A stretch of 35,590 bases of DNA from a virus. Taxonomy: Duplodnaviria > Caudoviricetes. Below are positions 1,422-35,161 of this stretch, one piece after another. The stretch covers positions 1 to 35,590 of the IMG/VR virus record IMGVR_UViG_3300037419_002816; one strand, written 5' to 3'. The number at the start of each line of letters is the position of its first letter. Position 1 is the first letter of the stretch. The notes beneath the pieces are model-generated. The model was given only the letters and a program-made list of their open reading frames with translations, made no database searches and was not told the origin of the DNA. A program made the position numbers and the translations under genes.

Positions 1422-1448
1422 AAACGTATAAATCCTCGCGTTCATTTA
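1422..1448 (+). promoter_or_regulatory. Operator-like repeat copy 1 (AAACGTATAAATCCTCGCGTTCATTTA)
   Basis: Near-identical copies at 8316, 14017 and 21875; dyad ATAAAT-N10-ATTTA(T). Confidence 0.75.
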
Positions 1449-1539
1449 CCCCGGCGTCTTAGCGGGGTGTGCCTATACGACGCATGAAGGACAGGAAACC
1501 GCCTGCCTTCATACACACAACACACCCTGGAGACATCGA

Positions 1540-3446: not shown

Positions 3447-3544
3447 GCTCGGAAAGGGGCCGCTTCGCCTCTGGAGGCCTCACAATTACCTGGAGGTAAT
3501 CACAGTAGCGCGGGATGCACCCGCGCACCCTTGGAGAAACTTGC

Positions 3545-5056
3545 ATGGCAACGGCAACGCTGGTCGAGCACGCTCACGCAGCGGGCAAGACGTTCATGGA
3601 GCGCGTCACGCGCGAAGAGCAGAAGGCAGAGGGGCAGTTTTGGACGCCCCCAGGCATTGCCCTCTTCATGGCCCGCCGCCTCGTGGCCGGCGTGGACACC
3701 CGCCCCATCCGAGTTCTCGAGCCGGCCGCGGGCGCCGGCATCCTGGCCGCGGCAGTCCTGGACGTTCTCCTGGAGCGCCCTGTTCGCCCCTCGCGCGTGG
3801 AACTGCTTCTCTGCGAGAAAGACCCCCGCCTGCTACCGGTGCTGGAAGCACTTGCGGTCAAAGCCAAGGCCATCTGCGCCGAGGCTGGCGTTGACCTCGA
3901 TGTAGCCATTGAAATCGGGGACTTCCTGCTGTCCGAGCGCGTGGTGAAGGGCGAGCCCATCGAGGGGCTCCTGACCATTTCGAATCCTCCGTTTTTCAAG
4001 CTGGCGAAGTCCTCTGCGCAGGCACAAGCGCACCCTTACGCGGTGTACGGCCAGCCGAACATCTATGGCCTGTTCATGGCCGCAACGGCCAGGCTGACCG
4101 GCAAGCATGGACGTTGGTGCTTCATCACGCCCAGGTCTTGGATGTCCGGCAGCTACTTTGGCGCTGTCCGCCGAACCATTCTTCGTCACCTCACGCTCGA
4201 GTCCCTGCACGCGTTCGAGTCGCGTACCGAGGGCTTCGCTGAGGACGAGGTCCTGCAGGAAACCGTCATCGCGTGGGGCGCTCATCGGCCGCAGGTCGAG
4301 CCTGGCTACCAGGTGCTCCTCTCGCGGAGCGCCGGCGTGGCGGACCTGGACGACATGCACATGCAGGCCCTCCCAATCGAGCGCCTGGTGAACGATGACG
4401 ACGGCCACGCTGTCATCAGCATCCCTGCCGACGGTCACGACCCCTTCGAGGGATGGACTGCCACCCTCGCCACGTACGGCCTCCAGGTCAGCACCGGCCC
4501 GGTGGTGGCGTTCCGCGCCACCGAGTACATCCGCGAGCACAAGGAAGCCGGCACCGTGCCCCTCCTGTGGCTCCAGCACGTGAAGCAGCAGGCCGTCCAG
4601 TGGCCGGTGCAAAAGAAGCGCGAGCACATCAAGGCGGTGGCCGGCAGCGCGTGGATGATGGTCAAGAACAGCCCCATGGTGCTGATGCACCGCTTCTCGC
4701 CGAACGAAGCGGAGCGCCGTGTGCGATGTGCTGCCTACGAAGGGCAGCTGCCGGGCGCTGTGGTGGGGCTCGAGAACCACCTGAACTACATCTTCAGGCC
4801 CTCGGGCAGCATGAGCGTGGCCGAGGCGCGGGGCCTGTCAGCGCTGCTGGCAAGCGAGGTTGTCGACAAGCACTTCCGCGCCTTGGCGGGAAGCACCCAG
4901 GTGAACGCCAGGGACCTCAGGGCGCTGCCTTTGCCGCCGCTGCGCGTCATCGTGGCCATCGGGGAGCGCCTGCCGGCGCAGCCCACGCTCGCCCAAGTGG
5001 ACACCGTCGTGGCCGAAGCCCTTGGATTGCATGCTTTAGTATCCGCGCAGGCGTAG
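3545..5056 (+). CDS. N6-adenine DNA methyltransferase, BsuBI/PstI (Eco57I-M-like) type
   Basis: GQFWTP, VLEPAAGAG (motif I), ISNPPF (motif IV), FITPRSW, ENHLNY, GSTQVNA; GGAG SD before 3545 (alternative start 3515). Confidence 0.88.
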   Translation: MATATLVEHAHAAGKTFMERVTREEQKAEGQFWTPPGIALFMARRLVAGVDTRPIRVLEPAAGAGILAAAVLDVLLERPVRPSRVELLLCEKDPRLLPVLEALAVKAKAICAEAGVDLDVAIEIGDFLLSERVVKGEPIEGLLTISNPPFFKLAKSSAQAQAHPYAVYGQPNIYGLFMAATARLTGKHGRWCFITPRSWMSGSYFGAVRRTILRHLTLESLHAFESRTEGFAEDEVLQETVIAWGAHRPQVEPGYQVLLSRSAGVADLDDMHMQALPIERLVNDDDGHAVISIPADGHDPFEGWTATLATYGLQVSTGPVVAFRATEYIREHKEAGTVPLLWLQHVKQQAVQWPVQKKREHIKAVAGSAWMMVKNSPMVLMHRFSPNEAERRVRCAAYEGQLPGAVVGLENHLNYIFRPSGSMSVAEARGLSALLASEVVDKHFRALAGSTQVNARDLRALPLPPLRVIVAIGERLPAQPTLAQVDTVVAEALGLHALVSAQA

Positions 5057-5167
5057 CCGCAGCATCGAAAACGGCAGGCCAGTTCTGCCGGTAGTGTTTT
5101 CACCAGCAGTGCTGCCGGTGAAAAACGTATACTCCAGCCGTCCCAACCCTGAAAAAGGCGTTTTTCG

Positions 5168-6247
5168 ATGGCTGTCCTCCCCGCGCTCCCCTCGCTCGAC
5201 CTGGTCCGCGCCAGGCTCGACGTCATCTTTCCGGAGACCTTCCCGGACCGCACCCCGCTCGTGAGCGAGATGTGCGCCCGGATGGTCTTCACCTGCATCT
5301 ACGGCAACTTCATCGAAGGCACGGGCACCTGGTTCCGGCCGAGCACGGTTATCCGGTTCAGCGAGGAACAAGCCGCCCGGACGCTTGACGCGGACCGCAA
5401 TGCTTGGGCGTCGCAATGCCAGAACCCGGGGTTCGTGCCGCTCGGGAAGCAGTGGTACGCGGATAACTCCCGCGAACCGCTGCGCGATGACCTGATTCGC
5501 AATCGCGCCATGCCCATCGGCATCATCGTGAAGCGGGAGGGGGTGCCGCCCACCAGCCCGGCGCCCATCTACGCGCTCTCCAAGGCCTTCGCGCGCCTGT
5601 TCGACCCCTCCCTGACCGGCTCGGACCTGGGCAATGCCATCAACCAGTGGCAGGAGCACTCGCTGGACCCGGGCACGCTCAAGCGGATGAAGTTGCTGGC
5701 GCAGGGCGTCACCGCCAAGGAGGGCCAGGTCACCGTCACCCTGCCCACCAGCGGCATCACGCTGCGCCTGGCGCCCGGCGAGGCCTCGCGCATCACCAAG
5801 GACGTGTGCGAGGTCATGGCGGTCGACAGCCTGCGGCAGCCGCTCGTGGTGCACGTCAGCATGTCCGACCGCAAAAGCTTCCCGGAACTCAAGGGCGCGA
5901 CCGACGCAGTGGGCCTGAAGTTCGACCCGAAGGCCGAACTGCCGGACGTGGTCATGGTCAACCTTTTCCAGCAGAAGGGCAAAGGCATGACCGTGGTGTT
6001 CGTGGAGGTGGTCCACAGCGACGGGCCCATCACGGAACTGCGGAAGAAGGCGCTCCTGCGGCTTGCCAAGGACGCCGGCATCCCCGAGAAGGATGTCGTG
6101 CTGGTGACCGCCTTCGAGGACCGCAACTCGCCTGCCTACAAGAAGCGCACGAGCGAACTGGCCTTCGACTCCTGGGTGTGGTTCCGCAGCGAGCCGCACC
6201 TGTTCCTGCACATCGGGCCCATGCGCAAGCTGGACGAAGCAGCCTGA
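5168..6247 (+). CDS. Type II restriction endonuclease, BsuBI/PstI family
   Basis: WYADNSREPLRDD N-terminal motif, LPDVV...FVEVVHSDGPITELRK, VTAFEDR, WVWFRSEP; directly follows the MTase. Confidence 0.85.
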   Translation: MAVLPALPSLDLVRARLDVIFPETFPDRTPLVSEMCARMVFTCIYGNFIEGTGTWFRPSTVIRFSEEQAARTLDADRNAWASQCQNPGFVPLGKQWYADNSREPLRDDLIRNRAMPIGIIVKREGVPPTSPAPIYALSKAFARLFDPSLTGSDLGNAINQWQEHSLDPGTLKRMKLLAQGVTAKEGQVTVTLPTSGITLRLAPGEASRITKDVCEVMAVDSLRQPLVVHVSMSDRKSFPELKGATDAVGLKFDPKAELPDVVMVNLFQQKGKGMTVVFVEVVHSDGPITELRKKALLRLAKDAGIPEKDVVLVTAFEDRNSPAYKKRTSELAFDSWVWFRSEPHLFLHIGPMRKLDEAA

Positions 6248-8315: not shown

Positions 8316-8347
8316 AAACATATAAATCCCCGCGTTCATTTATTCAC
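8316..8347 (+). promoter_or_regulatory. Operator-like repeat copy 2
   Basis: AAACATATAAATCCCCGCGTTCATTTATTCAC; CTACACG 40 nt from its start. Confidence 0.75.
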
Positions 8348-8394
8348 CTGCCTCGCTACACGGGGTAGGACTAACAACACACGAAGGAAATCTG

Positions 8395-8985
8395 ATGGCA
8401 ACGAAGAAGGCACCGGCTAAAAAAGCGGCCGCGAAGACCAAGACTGCACTGAGCAAGCAGGCGCAAGACGTTCTGAAGCTGGTCGAGATTGCGGCCTACC
8501 TCACTGACGACGAGCGCCGCATCAAGAGTGAGGCAATTCACAATGGCGCCGACCCGGAACAGGTGTGCCCATACCTGGCCAGCTACGACATCAAGCCGAC
8601 CAAAGCGCCTCAGTTCGTCCCGCCTGAGGGTAACAATGACGAGCGCCTCTACGACCAGAAAAAGGATGCCTGGAAGAAGTTCAAGGTCGACGAGTTCTTC
8701 CTGTACGAAATCCTGGATGCCCTGACGTTCGTGATGGCCCAAGGCAAACTCAATTCGCGCACCTGGGTCTACGAGGTCTTCAGGACCGAGAAGAACTGGT
8801 CCGGCTTCCTCGAGGAACTGGGCGTCTACGAGCAAATCCACCGCATTCGCGACCCTTGGTGGTGGACTCTGGCCAAGCTGGCCGAGCACGAAGACTTCGA
8901 GGAAGGCTTTTCGACCGCCGAAGACATGGCAGAAGCCCTCGAGCAGTACGCCATCGAAACCGGTCAGTTCGCTGAACTGAAGTGA
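8395..8985 (+). CDS. Hypothetical protein with Lys/Ala-rich N-tail and acidic C-terminus
   Basis: 196-aa ORF with AAGGA SD, its own promoter/operator and a terminator. Confidence 0.75.
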   Translation: MATKKAPAKKAAAKTKTALSKQAQDVLKLVEIAAYLTDDERRIKSEAIHNGADPEQVCPYLASYDIKPTKAPQFVPPEGNNDERLYDQKKDAWKKFKVDEFFLYEILDALTFVMAQGKLNSRTWVYEVFRTEKNWSGFLEELGVYEQIHRIRDPWWWTLAKLAEHEDFEEGFSTAEDMAEALEQYAIETGQFAELK

Positions 8986-14016: not shown

Positions 14017-14040
14017 AAACATATAAATCCTCGCGTTCAT
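14017..14040 (+). promoter_or_regulatory. Operator-like repeat copy 3
   Basis: AAACATATAAATCCTCGCGTTCAT; CTATACG at 14056. Confidence 0.75.
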
Positions 14041-14102
14041 CTGCTCGCGGCCTCGCTATACGTGAGACCTGAAGTGATGAGCAGGTGAACATGGAAAGTT
14101 GG

Positions 14103-14133
14103 GACCCCGGCCGAAAGGTCGGGGTCTATTTTT
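14103..14133 (+). terminator. Rho-independent terminator
   Basis: GACCCCGGCC-GAAA-GGTCGGGGTC-TATTTTT. Confidence 0.8.
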
Positions 14134-14695
14134 GCGCCACCCGCTCCAGTAGCGCGACGGCTTCGCGCTTCGCAGCGATGAGGCGGTCCAGAAGCTGCCG
14201 CCAGCTGGCCGGGAGGGTGTAGACCCCTTCTGCGCGGCCCTCGTCCGGCATTTCAACCACGTCCCCGCTGAGCGGCGCGAGGATGTCCGCTAAGCGGTCA
14301 AGGTCCGGCGCCACGTGCTCGTGGTCGTCAACTACCGCGATGAAGAAGATGGACCAGCCGCTCTCGCTGCCTTCAGCCGGCATCACCTTGGCCAGCATCA
14401 TCCCGACGGTCGCCGTCTGGCTTTCGGGCTCTCTCTTGCGCGTGCAGAGGCGTTCGAACTTCTTCTTCATCAGCGGCGGCATCTCGCGCCAGCGCTCCCA
14501 TCCGGACTCCTGCGGAATCTCCAGGCGAATCTCCAGCGGACTGAACGCAAGGTATTCGACGGCCTCGTCGAGGCTTGCGAATTCCACGATTTCGAGGTCT
14601 GAGCGAATGCCGACCAAACCTCCAGCGGTTTCGACTCCTGTGCGGCCGTCACGCACCACCTCTTGGCAGAGCACCAGCCACGTAATCATCCCCAT
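14126..14695 (-). CDS. Hypothetical protein (moron, ~189 aa)
   Basis: AAGGA SD before ATG at 14695 (MGMITWLVLCQ...); lower GC than its neighbours. Confidence 0.55.
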   Translation of the reverse strand: MGMITWLVLCQEVVRDGRTGVETAGGLVGIRSDLEIVEFASLDEAVEYLAFSPLEIRLEIPQESGWERWREMPPLMKKKFERLCTRKREPESQTATVGMMLAKVMPAEGSESGWSIFFIAVVDDHEHVAPDLDRLADILAPLSGDVVEMPDEGRAEGVYTLPASWRQLLDRLIAAKREAVALLERVAQK

Positions 14696-14873
14696 GCATG
14701 TCCTTTCTTCTTTACCCATCTTTACTGACACACCCCGACCCGTTATCGGGGTGGTGCCTATACGACGCAGGAGCAAGTGTTTTGCTCCTCGGCTCTCGCG
14801 AAGCCGCAACCTCCTGGTCACAGTCGGCCAGCAGGCCGCGAGTGATTCAGGACACCTCCATGGAGAACCCCAC

Positions 14874-15305: not shown

Positions 15306-15435
15306 GCTGCTCTCATTTTCGCAGCAGCGAAGCAAGTACGGAAGCCTAGAAAACGCGTTCTCCGTTGTATTTTGTCTGCAGTGAATAACAGGTGCCTATA
15401 CGGAGGACACACAACACGTTTTCTGGAGACAAGCA

Positions 15436-16239
15436 ATGAAACAAGAACACGCCGAACTGCTTGCAGTCGCACTCGCAGAGCAGGAATACAAGCCCTCGCG
15501 GGCAGAGCGCGCGCACGAAGCGGCGCGCACCATCCCCAAGCTGCACAAGGCTTCGCTGGCCTTCGAGCCCGTCATGCTGAAAAGCGCACTCTTCCGTCCC
15601 GCCTCCGGCGCGCGCGCCACGTTCGCGGCCTACACCGCCATTCGGGCTCACGGCTCCCACAAGGTCGAGTACCAGGGCGAAGAACTGCGGCAGGACGACC
15701 TGCGCGTGCTGCTTATGCTCCTCAAGCAGCGCAGCGGCGAGCGCGTTGACCACGTGCAGCAGTTCGTGCCGCGCACCTTCTGCCGCGAAGTCCTCGCCTG
15801 GGCTGACAGCAGCGACAGCGTCGCCAAGCTGCGCTCGTGCATCGAGCGCCTGCATGGCGCGCGCGTGCGCGTCACCTACGCTGATGGCGGCATCGGCCTC
15901 TACTCGTTCGTGTCGGACGCCGACCTGGCGGGCGAGCGCTGGAGCGTGTGGCTCAGTGAGCGCCTGGCTGCCATGTTCGAGCGCGCGACCACCTACATCC
16001 CGCGCGAAGACCGCCTCGCCCTGCGCGACGGCCTCGTTTCGTGGTTGTTCGGCTTCATCAAGGCCGACGCCTGCTTCGCGCCGTTCTCGCTCGCGGACCT
16101 GAGGGACCTGTCCGGCTCCAACAGCTACGAGCAGAAGGCCTTCAATCGCGTCCTCAAGGCGGCCCTGGAGCAGCTGCGCACCGCCGGCCTCATCGAGGGC
16201 TTTGAGGTTGCCGCCGGGAAGGTTCGCGTCCGCAAGTAA
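15436..16239 (+). CDS. TrfA-like plasmid replication initiator
   Basis: KSALF...YQGEELRQDDLRVLLML motif typical of TrfA-family Reps; winged-helix-like C-terminus; iterons just downstream. Confidence 0.75.
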   Translation: MKQEHAELLAVALAEQEYKPSRAERAHEAARTIPKLHKASLAFEPVMLKSALFRPASGARATFAAYTAIRAHGSHKVEYQGEELRQDDLRVLLMLLKQRSGERVDHVQQFVPRTFCREVLAWADSSDSVAKLRSCIERLHGARVRVTYADGGIGLYSFVSDADLAGERWSVWLSERLAAMFERATTYIPREDRLALRDGLVSWLFGFIKADACFAPFSLADLRDLSGSNSYEQKAFNRVLKAALEQLRTAGLIEGFEVAAGKVRVRK

Positions 16240-17438: not shown

Positions 17439-18541
17439 TGTCCTCCAAGAACATGAAGCGCGTCGCCGCGCAGCGGCTCGACACCGCGTACAACTTCACC
17501 CTCGCGCCGGTCGCTGAGGCCGCCGTGGAGGCCGCAGGCTCCGACACCGTCCTCATGCCGTTCCTGCCGGCGCAGGGCTCTATCGGGCGCGACGGCCGCG
17601 GCCCGTTCACCTACGACCTCGACGTCGTGATGGCGAACATCCGGGCGAACGCGCAAGACATCCCTGTGTTCCTCGACCACCAGCCTGGCAAGGCATACGG
17701 CTGGCAGTCGTACACCGCAGACCCGGTGGAGAACGCAGACGGCACGTACTCCCTGCCCGCCAAGATGACCGGCGACGGACTGCTGCACCTGCGCACGCAG
17801 GCCTATCGGTACAACAGCCCGACTTGGTTGTTCATCCAAGACCCCGCCATCACCGACCGCCAAGCCGGCCGCATCGTCGGCCTGGTCGAGAACTCGCTCG
17901 TGAATCTGCCGAACCAGTACTTCCGCTCCCTCAACGCGGCGGAACAGGGTGCCTATACGGCATTGATTCCCTCCGAAACGGAACCCAACCCAATGACCCC
18001 CGAACAATTGGCCCTCCTGGGCCTGGCCGAAGGCGCCACTCCCGAGCAAATCACCACTGCTCTCAACGCGCTGAGGGCCTCTGCCAACAAGGCCGAAGCC
18101 ATCATCACCGCCGCCGGCGCTGCGGCCGACGCCGACGCCCCCGCCGTGGTCGAAGCCGCTGCCAACTCGCGCGTGACCGCCGGCACCCTGGTGACCAAGC
18201 AGGCCTACGACGCCGTCGTGACTGCCCGCGACGAGGCGGTGACCTCCCTGAACACCCTGCGCGCTGACGTTGCCAAGCAGGCCGTCACCGACGCCGTGAC
18301 CGCCGCCAGCGAGCAGGGCCGCTGCACTCCTGCGGAGCGCGAGGACCTCATCGACTACGGCACGTCCCAGGGCGTGGAGAAGCTGAAGGCCATGCTGGCC
18401 AAGCGCCCCGTGCACAAGGCCGCCCAAGGCATGCAGACGCCCGCCGACACCGGCGCCGAAGCGGCCGACCCCGCCGCCGACTACGCGACCACGGCTCTCG
18501 GCATCACGCCCGAAACCTTCAAGGCAGGCAAGGCCGCGTAA
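17438..18541 (+). CDS. Mu-like prohead protease I with C-terminal scaffold (Z)
   Basis: GRDGRGP, IPVFLDH, AYGW, YRYNSP, SLVNLPN; Ala-rich scaffold beginning MTPEQLALLGL at 17993. Confidence 0.88.
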   Translation: MSSKNMKRVAAQRLDTAYNFTLAPVAEAAVEAAGSDTVLMPFLPAQGSIGRDGRGPFTYDLDVVMANIRANAQDIPVFLDHQPGKAYGWQSYTADPVENADGTYSLPAKMTGDGLLHLRTQAYRYNSPTWLFIQDPAITDRQAGRIVGLVENSLVNLPNQYFRSLNAAEQGAYTALIPSETEPNPMTPEQLALLGLAEGATPEQITTALNALRASANKAEAIITAAGAAADADAPAVVEAAANSRVTAGTLVTKQAYDAVVTARDEAVTSLNTLRADVAKQAVTDAVTAASEQGRCTPAEREDLIDYGTSQGVEKLKAMLAKRPVHKAAQGMQTPADTGAEAADPAADYATTALGITPETFKAGKAA

Positions 18542-21874: not shown

Positions 21875-21906
21875 AAACGTATAAATCTTCGCGTTCATTT
21901 ATTCAC
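21875..21906 (+). promoter_or_regulatory. Operator-like repeat copy 4
   Basis: AAACGTATAAATCTTCGCGTTCATTTATTCAC; CTACACG at 21914. Confidence 0.75.
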
Positions 21907-21971
21907 GCGGTTCCTACACGTCGTAGGTAGCTGGGATTTCTGGCTGCCAACAACACACAAGGAGCCTCGCA

Positions 21972-23253: not shown

Positions 23254-23328
23254 CGCGCCGTGGAGCAGTGGCAGCTTCCTGGGTTCATTCCCCAGAGGTC
23301 GCGGGTTCGATTCCCGCCGGCGCAACCA
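23254..23328 (+). tRNA. tRNA-fMet (CAT), initiator type
   Basis: Full cloverleaf with C1:A72 mismatch, A11:U24, GGG/CCC in the anticodon stem, TTCGA T-loop, encoded CCA; anticodon at 23286-23288. Confidence 0.92.
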
Positions 23329-23357
23329 CCCTCAAAAACACATTCTCTGGAGCGCCC

Positions 23358-23558
23358 ATGGCAACGACCACCATCAAGTACTTCGCGTACGCCCACCTCC
23401 CCGCCCATCTCCAAGCCGTGAGCAAGCCGCTCGGCGACCTGGCCGCCCAGTTCGAGGCGGAACTGCCCGACGGCCCGGAGAAGAGCGCGGGCATGCGGAA
23501 GCTGCTCGAAGCCAAGGATTGCTTCGTTCGCGCGGCGCTGGAAGCCCCCAAGGCCTAA
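23358..23558 (+). CDS. Conserved small phage helical protein (possible Acb2/Tad1-like hairpin)
   Basis: FAYAHLP..LQ.VSKP...LPDGPEKSAGMRKLLEAKDCFVRA; GGAG SD. Confidence 0.6.
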   Translation: MATTTIKYFAYAHLPAHLQAVSKPLGDLAAQFEAELPDGPEKSAGMRKLLEAKDCFVRAALEAPKA

Positions 23559-25565: not shown

Positions 25566-25640
25566 GCCAACCTGGCTGTCGCTACACAAAGGGTGCCTCG
25601 ATGAGGCGCCCTTTTTCGTTTCACACACTCACGCGACCCA

Positions 25641-26330: not shown

Positions 26331-29300
26331 ATGACCTCACCCCTCGCCCTTTCCTTCCGCATCGACGCTGAAACCGCAGCTGCTCTCAAGCAGCTGCAAG
26401 GCTTCCAGCGTCAGCTTCAAGCCCTCAACGGCATTCCCGCCATCCCGGACCCCACGGCGGGTGTGCGGACTGGCGCCGCTGCAACCTCTATGTCGCTGGG
26501 CGGCCTGCTCGGCGCGCTCGCTGCGGTGGCCAGTGCTGCCACCGCCGTCGGCGCAGCGTTCAAAGCCGGCTTCAAGAGCAACGCCGAAACTGAGTCCGCG
26601 GTGTTGGGCATCAAGTCGCTGGTTGCCGCCCTCACGACGGTGCGCGATGAGACGGGCAAGGTCGTCACCGACACCGGCAAGGCCATCGAGGTTTCCGGTG
26701 GCATCGCGGTAGACCAGGTCAAGAAGCTGCGCATCGCGGGCCTACAGACCTCGGCGACTTTCGAGCAGCTGCTGGGCGCCTTCCAGCAAGGCATCGGGGC
26801 CGGCTCCTCCGCCGGACTGGCGCTCGACCAAATCCGCGAACTGACCATTGGCATCACGCAGGCGGCCGGCGCGCTCGGCATGCCGATGCAGCAGCTGAAC
26901 CAGGAGGTTCGTTCGCTGCTGTCCGGTGACATCACAGCGGATTCCACGGTGGCCAAGGCGCTCGGCATCACCAAGAAGCAGGTGGATGCATGGCGCGACG
27001 CCGGCAAGCTGGCCGATGAACTGAACAAGCGGCTCGAGGTCTTCAAGCGCCTGGGCCCCGAAGCTGGTGCGACCTGGACGGCCACCTTGTCCAACGTGGG
27101 CGACGCAATCTCGCTGGTCCTGGGCGAGATGACCAAAGGCTCGTTCGACGCGCTCAAGCAGACCATTCAGCAAGGCATGAGCGAGGTGTTCGACACCGCC
27201 ACCGTGGGCGTTGCCGACCCCTTCAAGGGCCTGGTCGAGGCCGGCACGACGGCGTTCAATGCCATCGGAACCGTTCTCAACGACGCCCTTGGCGGCGCCA
27301 TTGGCATCGCCAAGGACCTGAGCACCTGGTTCAACAAGAACGCCGACGAGGTCGCAGTCATCGGCAGCGAGTTCGGGGTCATCTACGACAGCGCCAAAGA
27401 CATCCTGAAGACCATCATCAGCGCCGTGGGCGCGGTGGTGGGCTGGAGCGCTGAAACGGGCGTCCTGCGCTCCATCCTGGGCGGCATCGCCCTGTCGCTG
27501 GCTCTCATTCAGGACGGCTTCACCCTCATGAAGGGCCTGGCTGCCGACGTTGGCGGGTACATCCTAGACAAGATGGGCGGCGCTATTCGCTCCGTACTCA
27601 CGAGCATCCGCGACTTCGTGGCTCAGATTCCGGGCATCGGCTCCGGCTTGGCGAATGCCATCGACAGCACCCTCAAGGCGCTGCCCGCCAACGGCGCCGG
27701 CCTGCACGCGCTTGCCAAAGGCATCCAAGCCGACTTCGACGCCGGCCGCACCGCCGTGGCCCGCACGAACGCCGAACTCGCCAAGACCGGCAAGGAACTG
27801 CGCGAGCAGGCCGCCGAGCGCCTGCGTGAGTCCCGCCGCGGCGAGAAGGCGAAAGCGACCGGTTCGGCCACTGGCAAGAAGGCGCCCAAGGACGACAAGA
27901 AGGCCGCTGAGGCCCTTGCGGCAGCCCAGAAGGCATTCGACGACGCCATGCTCCAGGCGGCGAAAAAGGCTGCCGACGCGCAGCGCGAAGTGGCGCAGGC
28001 GAGTCTCGAAGAGGACCTGCAGAAGCGCCTGAAGACGCAGGAACAGTACCTGCGCGCCAAGGCGGACCTGGACAAGAAAGCCATCACCGACGAAGTTGCG
28101 GCGGCCAACACGCGCAAGGCGCAGCTTCAGAGCCAAATCGACGCCGAGAAGGACCCAGCCAAAAAGAAGAAGCTGGAAGCCGACATGGTGAAGCTGAAGG
28201 CGGACATCGACGCGCTCGAGAAGAAGGGCGTTGTCATCGACACCAAGCTTCGCATCGACCTGGAGGAGTTCCGCCGCCAAGTGGAAAGCCTGCGCGTTGA
28301 CATCAAGGCCAACATCATGGACCTTGAGGGCGACAGTGCCGGGGCCGCGAAGGCGCGGCTCCAGAAGGAGACGCAGGACCTGCTGAACGACCCCCGTGTT
28401 CGCGGCGACGTGGACATGGAGGCCACCGTGCGCCGCCAGTCCGACCTGAAGCAGATGCGCATCGACTACGACGAGCAGCAGCGCCTCATCGCCGCGCGCG
28501 CTGACGCTGCCTCGCGTGCCGAGGAACGCATCGCGCTGGCCGTCGACCAAGGGAAGATGACGGCTTTGGAGGCCGAGCGCGCGGTCCACGAGGAGCGGCT
28601 GAAGCAGGCTGACGCCATCCTGGCCAACGTGGAGGCGCTCGAGAAGCTGGCCGCAGAGGCCCCGGGAAACCTGGAACTCGCCAACGGCGCAGCGAAGGCT
28701 CGCCTCGAGTACGACAAGCTGCGCGGCACGCTGGACGCCACGGCCACCAGCATCAACCAGGACCTCAGCCACGGCGCTGTCGACTCGTTTGTAGACAGCC
28801 TCAAGCAAGGTGAGAGCGTCATCCACTCGCTGGGCAGCGCACTGTCGGACGCGTTCGGCAACCTGGCCAAGCGCGTGCTGAAGTCGTTCGAGGACGACCT
28901 GTTCAAAGCGCTTCAAGGAAGTGATGGCCAAGGCATCGGCGGCTTCCTCTCAGGCCTCCTCGGCGGGAAGGGCGGCTTCGACTGGGGCAAGATGTTCTCG
29001 AGCATCGGCTCGTTCTTTGGCTTCGCGACCGGCGGCTGGACGGGTTCAGGCGGCAAGTACCAACCCGCGGGCTTCGTGCACAAGGACGAATTCGTCTACA
29101 CCAAGGCCGAGGTCGGCAAGATGGGTGGGCCGGGCTTCTTCTACGACTTGAAGCGCCGCATCAACAGGGGCAGGGCAATGCGCGGCTACGCGGAAGGCGG
29201 CTTGGTCGGCGGCGGCATGGCAGGCGTCGTGCAGTCGTTCAGCCCGAACTTCTCGCCGAACCTGAGCATGAATCCTCCGGCCATCTTCTTCAGCATGGAC

Positions 29301-29396
29301 GACCTCACGCGCCATCTGGGCCGGCACCCGCAGTTCGGGCGTGATGTAGTCAAGGTCTATTTCGACAACCAGGGCAAGCTGCAAGGACGCAGCTGA
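26331..29396 (+). CDS. Tail tape measure protein
   Basis: 1021 aa, Ala/Gly-rich with coiled coils; C-terminal FATGGWTG.GGKYQPAG.VHKDEFV and YAEGGLVG. Confidence 0.92.
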   Translation: MTSPLALSFRIDAETAAALKQLQGFQRQLQALNGIPAIPDPTAGVRTGAAATSMSLGGLLGALAAVASAATAVGAAFKAGFKSNAETESAVLGIKSLVAALTTVRDETGKVVTDTGKAIEVSGGIAVDQVKKLRIAGLQTSATFEQLLGAFQQGIGAGSSAGLALDQIRELTIGITQAAGALGMPMQQLNQEVRSLLSGDITADSTVAKALGITKKQVDAWRDAGKLADELNKRLEVFKRLGPEAGATWTATLSNVGDAISLVLGEMTKGSFDALKQTIQQGMSEVFDTATVGVADPFKGLVEAGTTAFNAIGTVLNDALGGAIGIAKDLSTWFNKNADEVAVIGSEFGVIYDSAKDILKTIISAVGAVVGWSAETGVLRSILGGIALSLALIQDGFTLMKGLAADVGGYILDKMGGAIRSVLTSIRDFVAQIPGIGSGLANAIDSTLKALPANGAGLHALAKGIQADFDAGRTAVARTNAELAKTGKELREQAAERLRESRRGEKAKATGSATGKKAPKDDKKAAEALAAAQKAFDDAMLQAAKKAADAQREVAQASLEEDLQKRLKTQEQYLRAKADLDKKAITDEVAAANTRKAQLQSQIDAEKDPAKKKKLEADMVKLKADIDALEKKGVVIDTKLRIDLEEFRRQVESLRVDIKANIMDLEGDSAGAAKARLQKETQDLLNDPRVRGDVDMEATVRRQSDLKQMRIDYDEQQRLIAARADAASRAEERIALAVDQGKMTALEAERAVHEERLKQADAILANVEALEKLAAEAPGNLELANGAAKARLEYDKLRGTLDATATSINQDLSHGAVDSFVDSLKQGESVIHSLGSALSDAFGNLAKRVLKSFEDDLFKALQGSDGQGIGGFLSGLLGGKGGFDWGKMFSSIGSFFGFATGGWTGSGGKYQPAGFVHKDEFVYTKAEVGKMGGPGFFYDLKRRINRGRAMRGYAEGGLVGGGMAGVVQSFSPNFSPNLSMNPPAIFFSMDDLTRHLGRHPQFGRDVVKVYFDNQGKLQGRS

Positions 29397-29418
29397 AACG
29401 AGGGTTGCTATACGGAGG

Positions 29419-29498
29419 TGCAAGGTTCTTCTTCATGGCCTTGTTCTCCTGAGTGTGTTGTTGTGGGAGGGGGTGGCGAAAGCTGCCCCCTCTTTTTT
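29419..29498 (+). ncRNA. Candidate ~80-nt sRNA
   Basis: Promoter motif GCTATACG at 29407-29414 and terminator GAGGGGGTGGC-GAAA-GCTGCCCCCTC-TTTTTT at 29467-29498, with no complete ORF between. Confidence 0.45.
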
Positions 29499-29500
29499 CT

Positions 29501-29623
29501 TCACCACCGGAGCGCAACCCGCAGCAGCGTGGCGTTGAAGGCAATCCAGGTGCCGACGAGCGCCAGGTCGAATGCGTCTGCGCGTCGGGCGCGCATCTTG
29601 CGGAGAGCGGTACTGCGAAACAT
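29501..29623 (-). CDS. Small membrane peptide (40 aa)
   Basis: Manual translation MFRSTALRKMRARRADAFDLALVGTWIAFNATLLRVALRW; below the ORF-track cutoff. Confidence 0.4.
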   Translation of the reverse strand: MFRSTALRKMRARRADAFDLALVGTWIAFNATLLRVALRW

Positions 29624-34789: not shown

Positions 34790-35161
34790 ATGAACACAGC
34801 CCAAAACACGCTCACTGTGCAGGAACAAGCACAGGCTCCGTGCGCGCAAACCCCTTCCGGTGCGCCGAAGTACAGGCGCGTCCTGGTGCGGTTGAAGGGC
34901 AAGGAGCGCCCGACGTCGGTTGCCGTTCGCGAGAACCAGTTCCTCGAGATGGTGAAGTACACGCACGGTGATGAGGCAGCAGCCTTTCGCGCGCTGCGCA
35001 AGGCCGCACTGTCGGTTGAAGAGCGTCGCAACGGCTACGTCTCCGAGGCAGTGCGCAGCAAAGCCCTCGCGTCGCTGCGCGGTTCCTTCCGCCCGGTGCG
35101 CGATGACGCAGCCGCGCTCCTGGCCGAGGAGAACAACGCGGCATGGTCCGCCAACGGCTGA
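34790..35161 (+). CDS. Putative ribbon-helix-helix-like DNA-binding protein
   Basis: RPTSVAV...VSEAVR pattern similar to RHH_4; promoter motif at 34749. Confidence 0.5.
   Translation: MNTAQNTLTVQEQAQAPCAQTPSGAPKYRRVLVRLKGKERPTSVAVRENQFLEMVKYTHGDEAAAFRALRKAALSVEERRNGYVSEAVRSKALASLRGSFRPVRDDAAALLAEENNAAWSANG

Follow-up and report, generated by a model that had tools for sequence, protein, structure and literature searches.

Behind the tail tape measure gene of the phage genome fragment shown above, a promoter-like motif and a strong terminator enclose a stretch of about 80 nt with a GU-rich core. Does this locus encode a trans-acting small RNA (sRNA), as the original prediction held, and if so, which mRNAs would it silence, and when? 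The window (the whole stretch analyzed, 35,590 nt) is a 35.6-kb siphophage fragment with Mu-like head genes and D3112-type tail genes, which also encodes a TrfA-like Rep and a BsuBI-like restriction-modification pair. Named homologs of Rep stem from Caldimonas, Cupriavidus, Janthinobacterium, Comamonas, and Delftia, so the host of this phage likely belongs to the Burkholderiales. The same Rep is also present on a recorded 42,761-bp contig; some 7 kb of the phage thus lie outside the window and may contain stronger targets or a repressor gene. As synteny anchor for comparisons with related phages we used the following gene:

26331..29396, plus strand: tail tape measure gene (PHROG 24, E 1e-24)

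A family search over 401 + 401 genomes yielded one prophage, which resides in genome G746, is identical to record G157, and shows a weak tyrosine-integrase match. Another relative, G956, is a complete genome with terminal repeats and encodes a serine integrase. Because relatives carry integrases and one of them is the prophage in G746, the family is temperate. The G746 genome also contains hfq. Scans of metagenomes and genomes detected no further family member, blastn against phage records returned two short tape measure matches, no RNA run was listed as containing this stretch, and four DNA runs compared with the window contained near-identical DNA only. Two features elsewhere in the window are recorded here. 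The restriction-modification pair (3515-6247) is of the BsuBI/PstI type, its counterparts in the G746 prophage being 65% and 42% identical, and a 120-nt tandem duplication (885-1124, 83% identical) lies within the minus-strand SH3-domain gene.

A Probable RNA Unit Behind the Tape Measure Gene

The unit begins with an SCTAYAS box and a 5' hairpin, continues with a UCUCCU motif and GU-rich seed, and ends with a terminator. In the window, its parts are:

29407..29413, plus strand: promoter box GCTATAC (SCTAYAC class), 10 nt past the tape measure stop, putative promoter
29420..29500, plus strand: predicted sRNA of about 81 nt, start deduced from box-to-ATG spacing, fold computed
29420..29444, plus strand: 5' hairpin, loop with UUCUUCAU (anti-AUG-AAG)
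29445..29464, plus strand: single-stranded seed, UCUCCU (anti-SD) and GU-rich tract (anti-ACA enhancer), unpaired in the MFE fold
29465..29500, plus strand: intrinsic terminator, which would also terminate tape measure transcripts

The seed proposed originally, CTCCTGAGTGTGTTGTTG, is present at 29446-29463, and the terminator was confirmed as a 13-pair hairpin with a U tract (29465-29500). The claimed promoter motif stands in part: GCTATAC occurs at 29407-29413, but a generic sigma-70 scan finds no site, so that calling it a promoter depends on the box characteristic of this phage. Folding z-scores were -3.4 to -4.2 for two longer plus-strand versions versus -1.7 for the minus strand. Rfam searches at the gathering threshold with the window and four orthologous loci returned tRNAs only and no family for the unit. 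A promoter (by motif) of its own, a terminator, and a conserved unpaired seed, which together characterize trans-acting multi-target sRNAs, are all present, and the locus very probably encodes a real, previously undescribed phage small RNA.

A conserved convergent gene for a small hydrophobic toxin, as expected of a type I toxin-antitoxin system, was not found at the locus. A 40-aa ORF whose C-terminal half is hydrophobic (29501-29623, minus strand) converges on the terminator, its stop at 29501 lying beside the U tract; it has no PHROG hit, and tblastn found no match to it in the relatives searched (those besides G157 and G956).

Putative Promoter Boxes and Upstream Repeats

The SCTAYAC motif is strongly biased toward the plus strand in these phages (24 plus versus 0 minus copies in the window, 28 versus 1 in G956, and 11 versus 2 in G157), a bias not seen in 740 kb of host DNA with 71 versus 83 copies. 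Seven window copies lie 5–6 nt ahead of an ATG, compared with two in the host sample. The motif appears to be a phage promoter box that gives rise to many leaderless mRNAs. As the boxes of apparently leaderless genes sit 5–6 nt before the ATG, transcription of the RNA should start near G29420, which is the first base of the 5' hairpin. Nearly all plus-strand transcription units of the window have their own SCTAYAC box, which is uncommon as a host promoter. Two of the promoters (1459-1471 and 14738-14756) share a CCCCG..CGGGG dyad before GTG-CCTATAC-GACGCA and a 5' hairpin.

The target genes had been described as the first genes behind dyad operators. A 32-nt repeat indeed occurs in four copies, but only two of these are perfect ATAAAT-N10-ATTTAT dyads, and the description is incomplete, as rep has no repeat copy and the copy at 14017 precedes a second short RNA-like unit. 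No further instance emerged from a scan of viral contigs for the repeat motif. The copies ahead of the genes considered below are:

1422..1453, plus strand: upstream repeat copy 1 (family D3), ahead of ORF 1540, imperfect dyad
8316..8347, plus strand: upstream repeat copy 2, ahead of ORF 8395, perfect ATAAAT-N10-ATTTAT
21875..21906, plus strand: upstream repeat copy 4, ahead of ORF 21972, perfect dyad

The second RNA-like unit (14055-14135, plus strand) follows the gpF-like gene, is preceded by an upstream-repeat promoter, and has equivalents in G157 (14087-14195), G002 (about 1480-1560), and G956 (18112-18190). A hairpin loop with AAGTGATGAG and the terminator are common to the window and G157, and a related CTGACGAG unit occurs in G002 and G956. 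The complement of the AAGTGATGAG loop was found nowhere else among 132 loci. For the second unit and the seed RNA, a duplex of -22.3 kcal/mol was computed, which is a raw, uncorrected value.

Conservation in Related Phages

The box, seed, and terminator recur at the tape measure/tail junction in six of seven independent family records, namely the window, G001, G002, G003, G157, and G956. The seventh record, G004, is 18% complete and has the terminator alone at this junction; among its 19 starts there is no site for the window RNA better than -9.1. G005, which shares tail genes and in which no RNA element was seen, was excluded from the seven because it showed no syntenic tape measure junction. 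In all six orthologs the CTCCT and TGTGT columns are invariant, a promoter box lies ahead, and a terminator hairpin with a U-rich tail ends the unit. A hairpin at +1 is present in four of them with unrelated sequences, G002 and G956 being short forms without it; the seed is invariant while both hairpins differ in sequence between records. In G002 the unit is positioned after an inserted minus-strand gene. Past the terminator, all five relatives carry a cassette with its own promoter, which in four has a CA-rich GGAG leader. RNAalifold predicted no pairs on a MAFFT alignment, and as MAFFT could not align the hairpins either, the unit has neither a covariance model nor formal covariation support.

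Predicted Targets in the Window

Pairing was computed with our own exact RNAup-like script (summing hybrid and opening energies over -40 to +20 around the start), not with IntaRNA, for 41 curated start sites of the window, and compared with a 1% line derived from 477 host starts. The sites are:

8372..8414, plus strand: predicted site 1, leader and start of the 196-aa ORF 8395 (-23.1 kcal/mol, rank 1 of 41)
1513..1533, plus strand: predicted site 2, leader of the 66-aa ORF 1540 (-19.5, rank 2)
15409..15452, plus strand: predicted site 3, leader, SD, and AUG of the TrfA-like rep, 15436-16239 (-19.1, rank 3)
21949..21964, plus strand: predicted site 4, leader of the 97-aa ORF 21972 (-16.1, rank 4)
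23333..23352, plus strand: weaker predicted site, leader of the 66-aa ORF 23358 (-11.8, above the host 1% line)
25623..25636, plus strand: weaker predicted site, leader of the tail assembly chaperone gene (-11.3)

The leader matches underlying the original prediction were reproduced at 1517-1532 and 8373-8388 (14/16 each), whereas the one at 21948-21964 is present but needs one gap. The match to the rep leader had been called weak; according to the computation, however, pairing spans positions -27 to +16, taking in the SD, the spacer, and the AUG, and reaches -19.1 kcal/mol, which places rep among the top three. Below the host 1% line are four of 22 non-virion starts versus none of 19 virion starts. 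The 1540 and 21972 leaders fit the pattern ACAACACAC-N0-6-GGAG-N4-10-ATG, which has no match in five RF02278-bearing bacterial genomes. With a heuristic pairing code, the mean of the four sites was reached by none of 55 seed-only shuffles and none of 55 dinucleotide shuffles of the whole 5' part. Since these four targets had been picked in the original prediction, the records outside that sample weigh more.

Among the predicted target genes, ORFs 1540, 8395, and 21972 have no Pfam or PHROG match and nothing above the cut-off in NCBIfam, and ORF 8395 gave no usable atlas match. The protein of ORF 23358 has no Pfam hit and no PDB match; in its atlas look-alike cluster, 18% of the members carry PF24729 (Acb2_Tad1_hairpin), and it is possibly a nucleotide-sponge protein. 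This ORF (23358-23558) follows a tRNA gene with its own box (23254-23325), and in G001 the gene after the tRNAs belongs to the Acb4 family.

Predicted Targets in the Relatives

In G956, which was found after the hypothesis had been formed, seven of 23 non-virion starts but none of 19 virion starts fall below the host 1% line (Mann–Whitney p 3e-4). About a dozen separately promoted genes of this phage have ACACAAC..GGAG leaders, and rep, ranking ninth at -14.0, narrowly misses the line. None of 70 dinucleotide and none of 70 mononucleotide shuffles reached the mean of its top five sites. The gene count was, however, matched by 11 of the 70 dinucleotide shuffles, and the closest shuffle attained -22.3 versus -22.4, so that the breadth of targeting is partly a matter of GU/CA composition. 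Among the genes of G956 that share the leader is a T4 Rnl1-type RNA ligase (L173:9517-10629), a possible counter to tRNA-cleaving defenses; the gp49 protein of G956 has no PDB match.

The remaining records differ in what their RNAs are predicted to reach. In G157 the cassette gene after the RNA ranks first of 47 (-21.4), and pairing to rep is weak (-7.1). In G002 the first four of 36 ranks are taken by a conserved small ORF, the coding start of a virion gene (-16.0), rep, and the cassette. In G001 a PF13876 gene ranks first of 25 through a 14-bp run, its G956 ortholog ranks fourth of 42, and the cassette reaches only -4.0; PF13876 is described as the Acb4 sponge family (10.1101/2024.12.30.630793, as far as the available part of that preprint goes). 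No site of G003 lies below the host 1% line, the best being -11.6 and the cassette -8.8 with a perfect 10-nt match at the start. The conserved small ORF targeted first in G002 corresponds to a small protein of the window (34790-35161) that has orthologs in G001, G002, G003, G005, and G956 (six records) and no Pfam hit; its sequence, judged by eye, is presumably ribbon-helix-helix-like, and the protein is a candidate regulator.

The leader of the tail assembly chaperone gene is a recurring site of moderate strength (-11 to -12) and the best labeled virion match in the window, G956, G003, and G157; the RNA might tune chaperone versus tape measure levels. There is no lock-and-key covariation between RNA and leaders across the family. 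The window leader 1540 pairs better with the RNAs of G002 and G956 (-26 and -25) than with the window RNA (-20), and as RNAs of other members thus pair equally well or better with window leaders, the seed appears to read a family-wide leader rather than to form a co-evolved lock. Contigs L005 and L007 have exact 18-mer matches but were rejected as family members, the matches being leaders of unrelated phages; L006 is the window's own DNA, and L021 was discarded as a pattern match within an unrelated contig. Since L005 and L007 use the exact CAACAACACACTCAGGAG as a gene leader, this leader type is not unique to the family.

Proposed Function and Timing

The promoter-seed-terminator unit would produce a trans-acting small RNA of about 80 nt. 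Its GU tract would pair with ACA enhancer motifs while UCUCCU covers the SD sequence, and in three records an anti-AUG stretch would lengthen the duplex. Ribosome entry would thereby be blocked on separately promoted non-virion mRNAs, including that of rep, probably with the aid of Hfq, and a few host transporter mRNAs may be hit as well. Virion mRNAs should mostly escape because they are leaderless or have no CA-GGAG leader. The idea of one trans-acting sRNA that occludes a shared leader thus gains from the conservation of the unit (6/7) and from predicted targets that are repeated in G956 and G157. That a single late RNA of this kind blocks translation of the phage's own non-virion genes has, in our estimate, an even chance of being correct, judged from computed pairing and comparative sequence data.

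Silencing would most likely take place late in lytic growth. The switch had been proposed to be either early-to-late or lysis/lysogeny, and the promoter class is the one feature that favors the former. AT-rich upstream elements are found at none of 17 virion-gene boxes, at 16 of 23 non-virion boxes, and at none of the six RNA boxes; because the RNA promoter thus resembles the virion-gene promoters, late shut-off is favored over lysogeny control. This timing argument is weak, since the element pattern was defined by eye, using the non-virion promoters themselves, and tape measure coding sequence borders most RNA boxes.

Alternatively, the RNA could be made in the lysogen and keep rep and early genes untranslated, a form of RNA-based immunity. 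In an integrated prophage rep must be off, the family is temperate, and no CI-like or Pfam repressor was matched among 42 window ORFs, 25 ORFs mostly from G956, and 77 further ORFs, which are subsets of all reading frames; moreover, the unit resembles a moron in bringing a promoter and a terminator of its own. However, the RNA box belongs to the class found ahead of virion genes, no box was found upstream of the window SH3 and methylase genes or the G956 integrase gene, and in G157, the sole known prophage, rep pairing is weak. We therefore consider such a lock unlikely.

Predicted Pairing with Host mRNAs

The RNA might instead act mainly against host mRNAs, such as those of periplasmic transport proteins and perhaps of a receptor pathway, mimicking the RF02278/S17S RNA; its pairing with phage leaders would then follow from both using strong ribosome-binding motifs. 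The UCUCCU core is shared with host RF02278 copies, and S17S represses many transporter genes (PMC11722255, in the part of the paper available). A few host transporter leaders that pair equally well were missed in the original prediction: the leader of a DctP substrate-binding protein gene reaches -21.6 over 30 nt including AUGAA, and GGAGACAAGACCATGAA occurs three times in five genomes.

A caller-free scan covered 642 SD-bearing starts in 1.5 Mb of three RF02278-bearing genomes (about 19% of G746, 7% of G045, and 9% of G129), which served as stand-ins for the window phage's own host. For the window RNA, four of these starts (about 0.6%) reached -16 or better and one was below -19. At -16, the window had 4/41 phage starts versus 4/642 host starts, a post hoc comparison, and G956 had 5/42 versus 8/642 (p about 6e-4 each); the odds enrichment of phage over host starts is 11- to 17-fold. 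Moreover, the GU tract fits the ACAACACAC leader, which is absent from the five host genomes. A primarily host-directed role is accordingly rather improbable, and the main targets of the RNA are probably non-virion genes of the phage itself. As few host starts pair strongly, a handful of host genes, including transporters, may be co-targeted (compare S17S; PMC11722255, available part).

Terminator and Minus-Strand ORF

A simpler explanation would be that only the terminator is functional, as the end of the tape measure transcript, and that the seed is an Hfq or RNase site or a chance GU run without any regulatory effect in trans. The terminator alone in G004, the low complexity of the seed, and the weak targeting in G001 and G003 agree with this. 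Yet the box, the +1 hairpin (4/6), and UCUCCU have been kept although the neighboring tail protein is just 35–58% identical across the unit-bearing records. In addition, a descriptor built from the six orthologs, for which only the control side is informative, found nothing with a box when run on roughly 2.2 Mb of host and distant-phage sequence, which included 1.5 Mb from host samples along with 45 tail and 12 Rep loci of distant origin and five RF02278 loci. We regard this explanation as improbable.

As an alternative, the original prediction named a minus-strand gene preceded by this leader, on which the RNA would act in cis:

29350..29436, minus strand: 28-aa ORF MKKNL..., overlapping the tape measure 3' end, not conserved, no PHROG hit

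Although the ORF exists and a minus-strand GGAG lies 9 nt ahead of its ATG, a gene is very improbable, because no homolog was found in relatives or PHROGs, the antisense frames of three records (28, 7, and 50 aa) are unrelated and three records have none, and the window has no minus-strand box; we judge the ORF to be a likely by-product of complementarity to SD and AUG.

Relation to Known Small RNAs

Like the Betaproteobacteria toxic sRNA (RF02278) and Bordetella S17S, the predicted phage RNA is about 60–80 nt long and has an intrinsic terminator and a UCUCCU anti-SD core, which in the phage is single-stranded and invariant (CTCCT, 6/6), and host RF02278 copies carry GTCTCCTCC. S17S represses many genes at the ribosome-binding site in an Hfq-dependent manner (PMC11722255, available part). 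In contrast to RF02278, the RNA described here is phage-borne, combines one anti-SD site with a GU tract in place of paired GUCUCCUC-type sites, and finds its best predicted targets among phage genes. The RF02278 model did not match at gathering (50 bits), nor was it among the 14 matches at E <= 10.

GcvB, which has a G/U-rich seed and is more than twice as long, offers a parallel, since the one seed of the phage RNA is likewise predicted to bind ACA-rich enhancers on several mRNAs. GcvB silences many mRNAs by covering ACA motifs beside the SD, motifs that enhance translation (PMC3879156, available part). Unlike GcvB, the RNA is phage-encoded, its seed also covers the SD itself, and it has no Rfam match. 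The order of UCCU, GU-rich tract, and terminator is similar in Neisseria AniS (RF02274), which is Hfq-bound (PMC5449619, available part). This is a resemblance only, as the AniS model scored 17.7 bits against a gathering threshold of 50 (E 0.74).

Among regulatory RNAs of phages, P1 C4 and P4 CI act on one operon each. The phage-encoded sar, OOP, aQ, 24B_1, PreS, and VpdS likewise affect translation or life-cycle choice: according to the available text of PMC12197685, sar, OOP, and aQ each act as antisense RNAs on a single gene, a single phage gene has been proposed as the target of 24B_1, PreS is directed at the host gene dnaN, and VpdS acts by competing for Hfq; none of them is described there as silencing scattered phage genes through a shared leader. 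Unlike the cis-antisense type of sar and OOP, the unit lies opposite no conserved ORF, and its predicted targets are 7–28 kb away. In the literature surveyed (titles and abstract openings, few subscription journals, the 38 unassigned phage sRNAs in Table S1 of PMC12197685 lying outside), neither this RNA nor any phage RNA that silences many of the phage's own genes via one leader was described. Aca repressors shut strong early anti-defense operons, some translationally and some across several operons (PMC13551039, available part); they are proteins, whereas the phage unit would act as a base-pairing RNA.

Implications for the Phage Family

One late RNA may serve as a master off-switch for scattered early, replication, and anti-defense genes that share an enhancer leader, with leaderless virion mRNAs immune to it, a reading to which we assign slightly less than an even chance. 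If true, it would be the equivalent, at the RNA level, of Aca repressors, here in a temperate family without a recognizable CI repressor, and would add a new layer to the phage gene-expression program, in which a set of the phage's own genes is timed via a shared leader; known phage small RNAs mostly have one cis target or act on the host. The leader itself would be a sequence tag for early and anti-defense genes, as it marks Acb4-family and RNA-ligase genes among ORFs of unknown function. A prophage of this family is available in G746, a cultured-type host genome.
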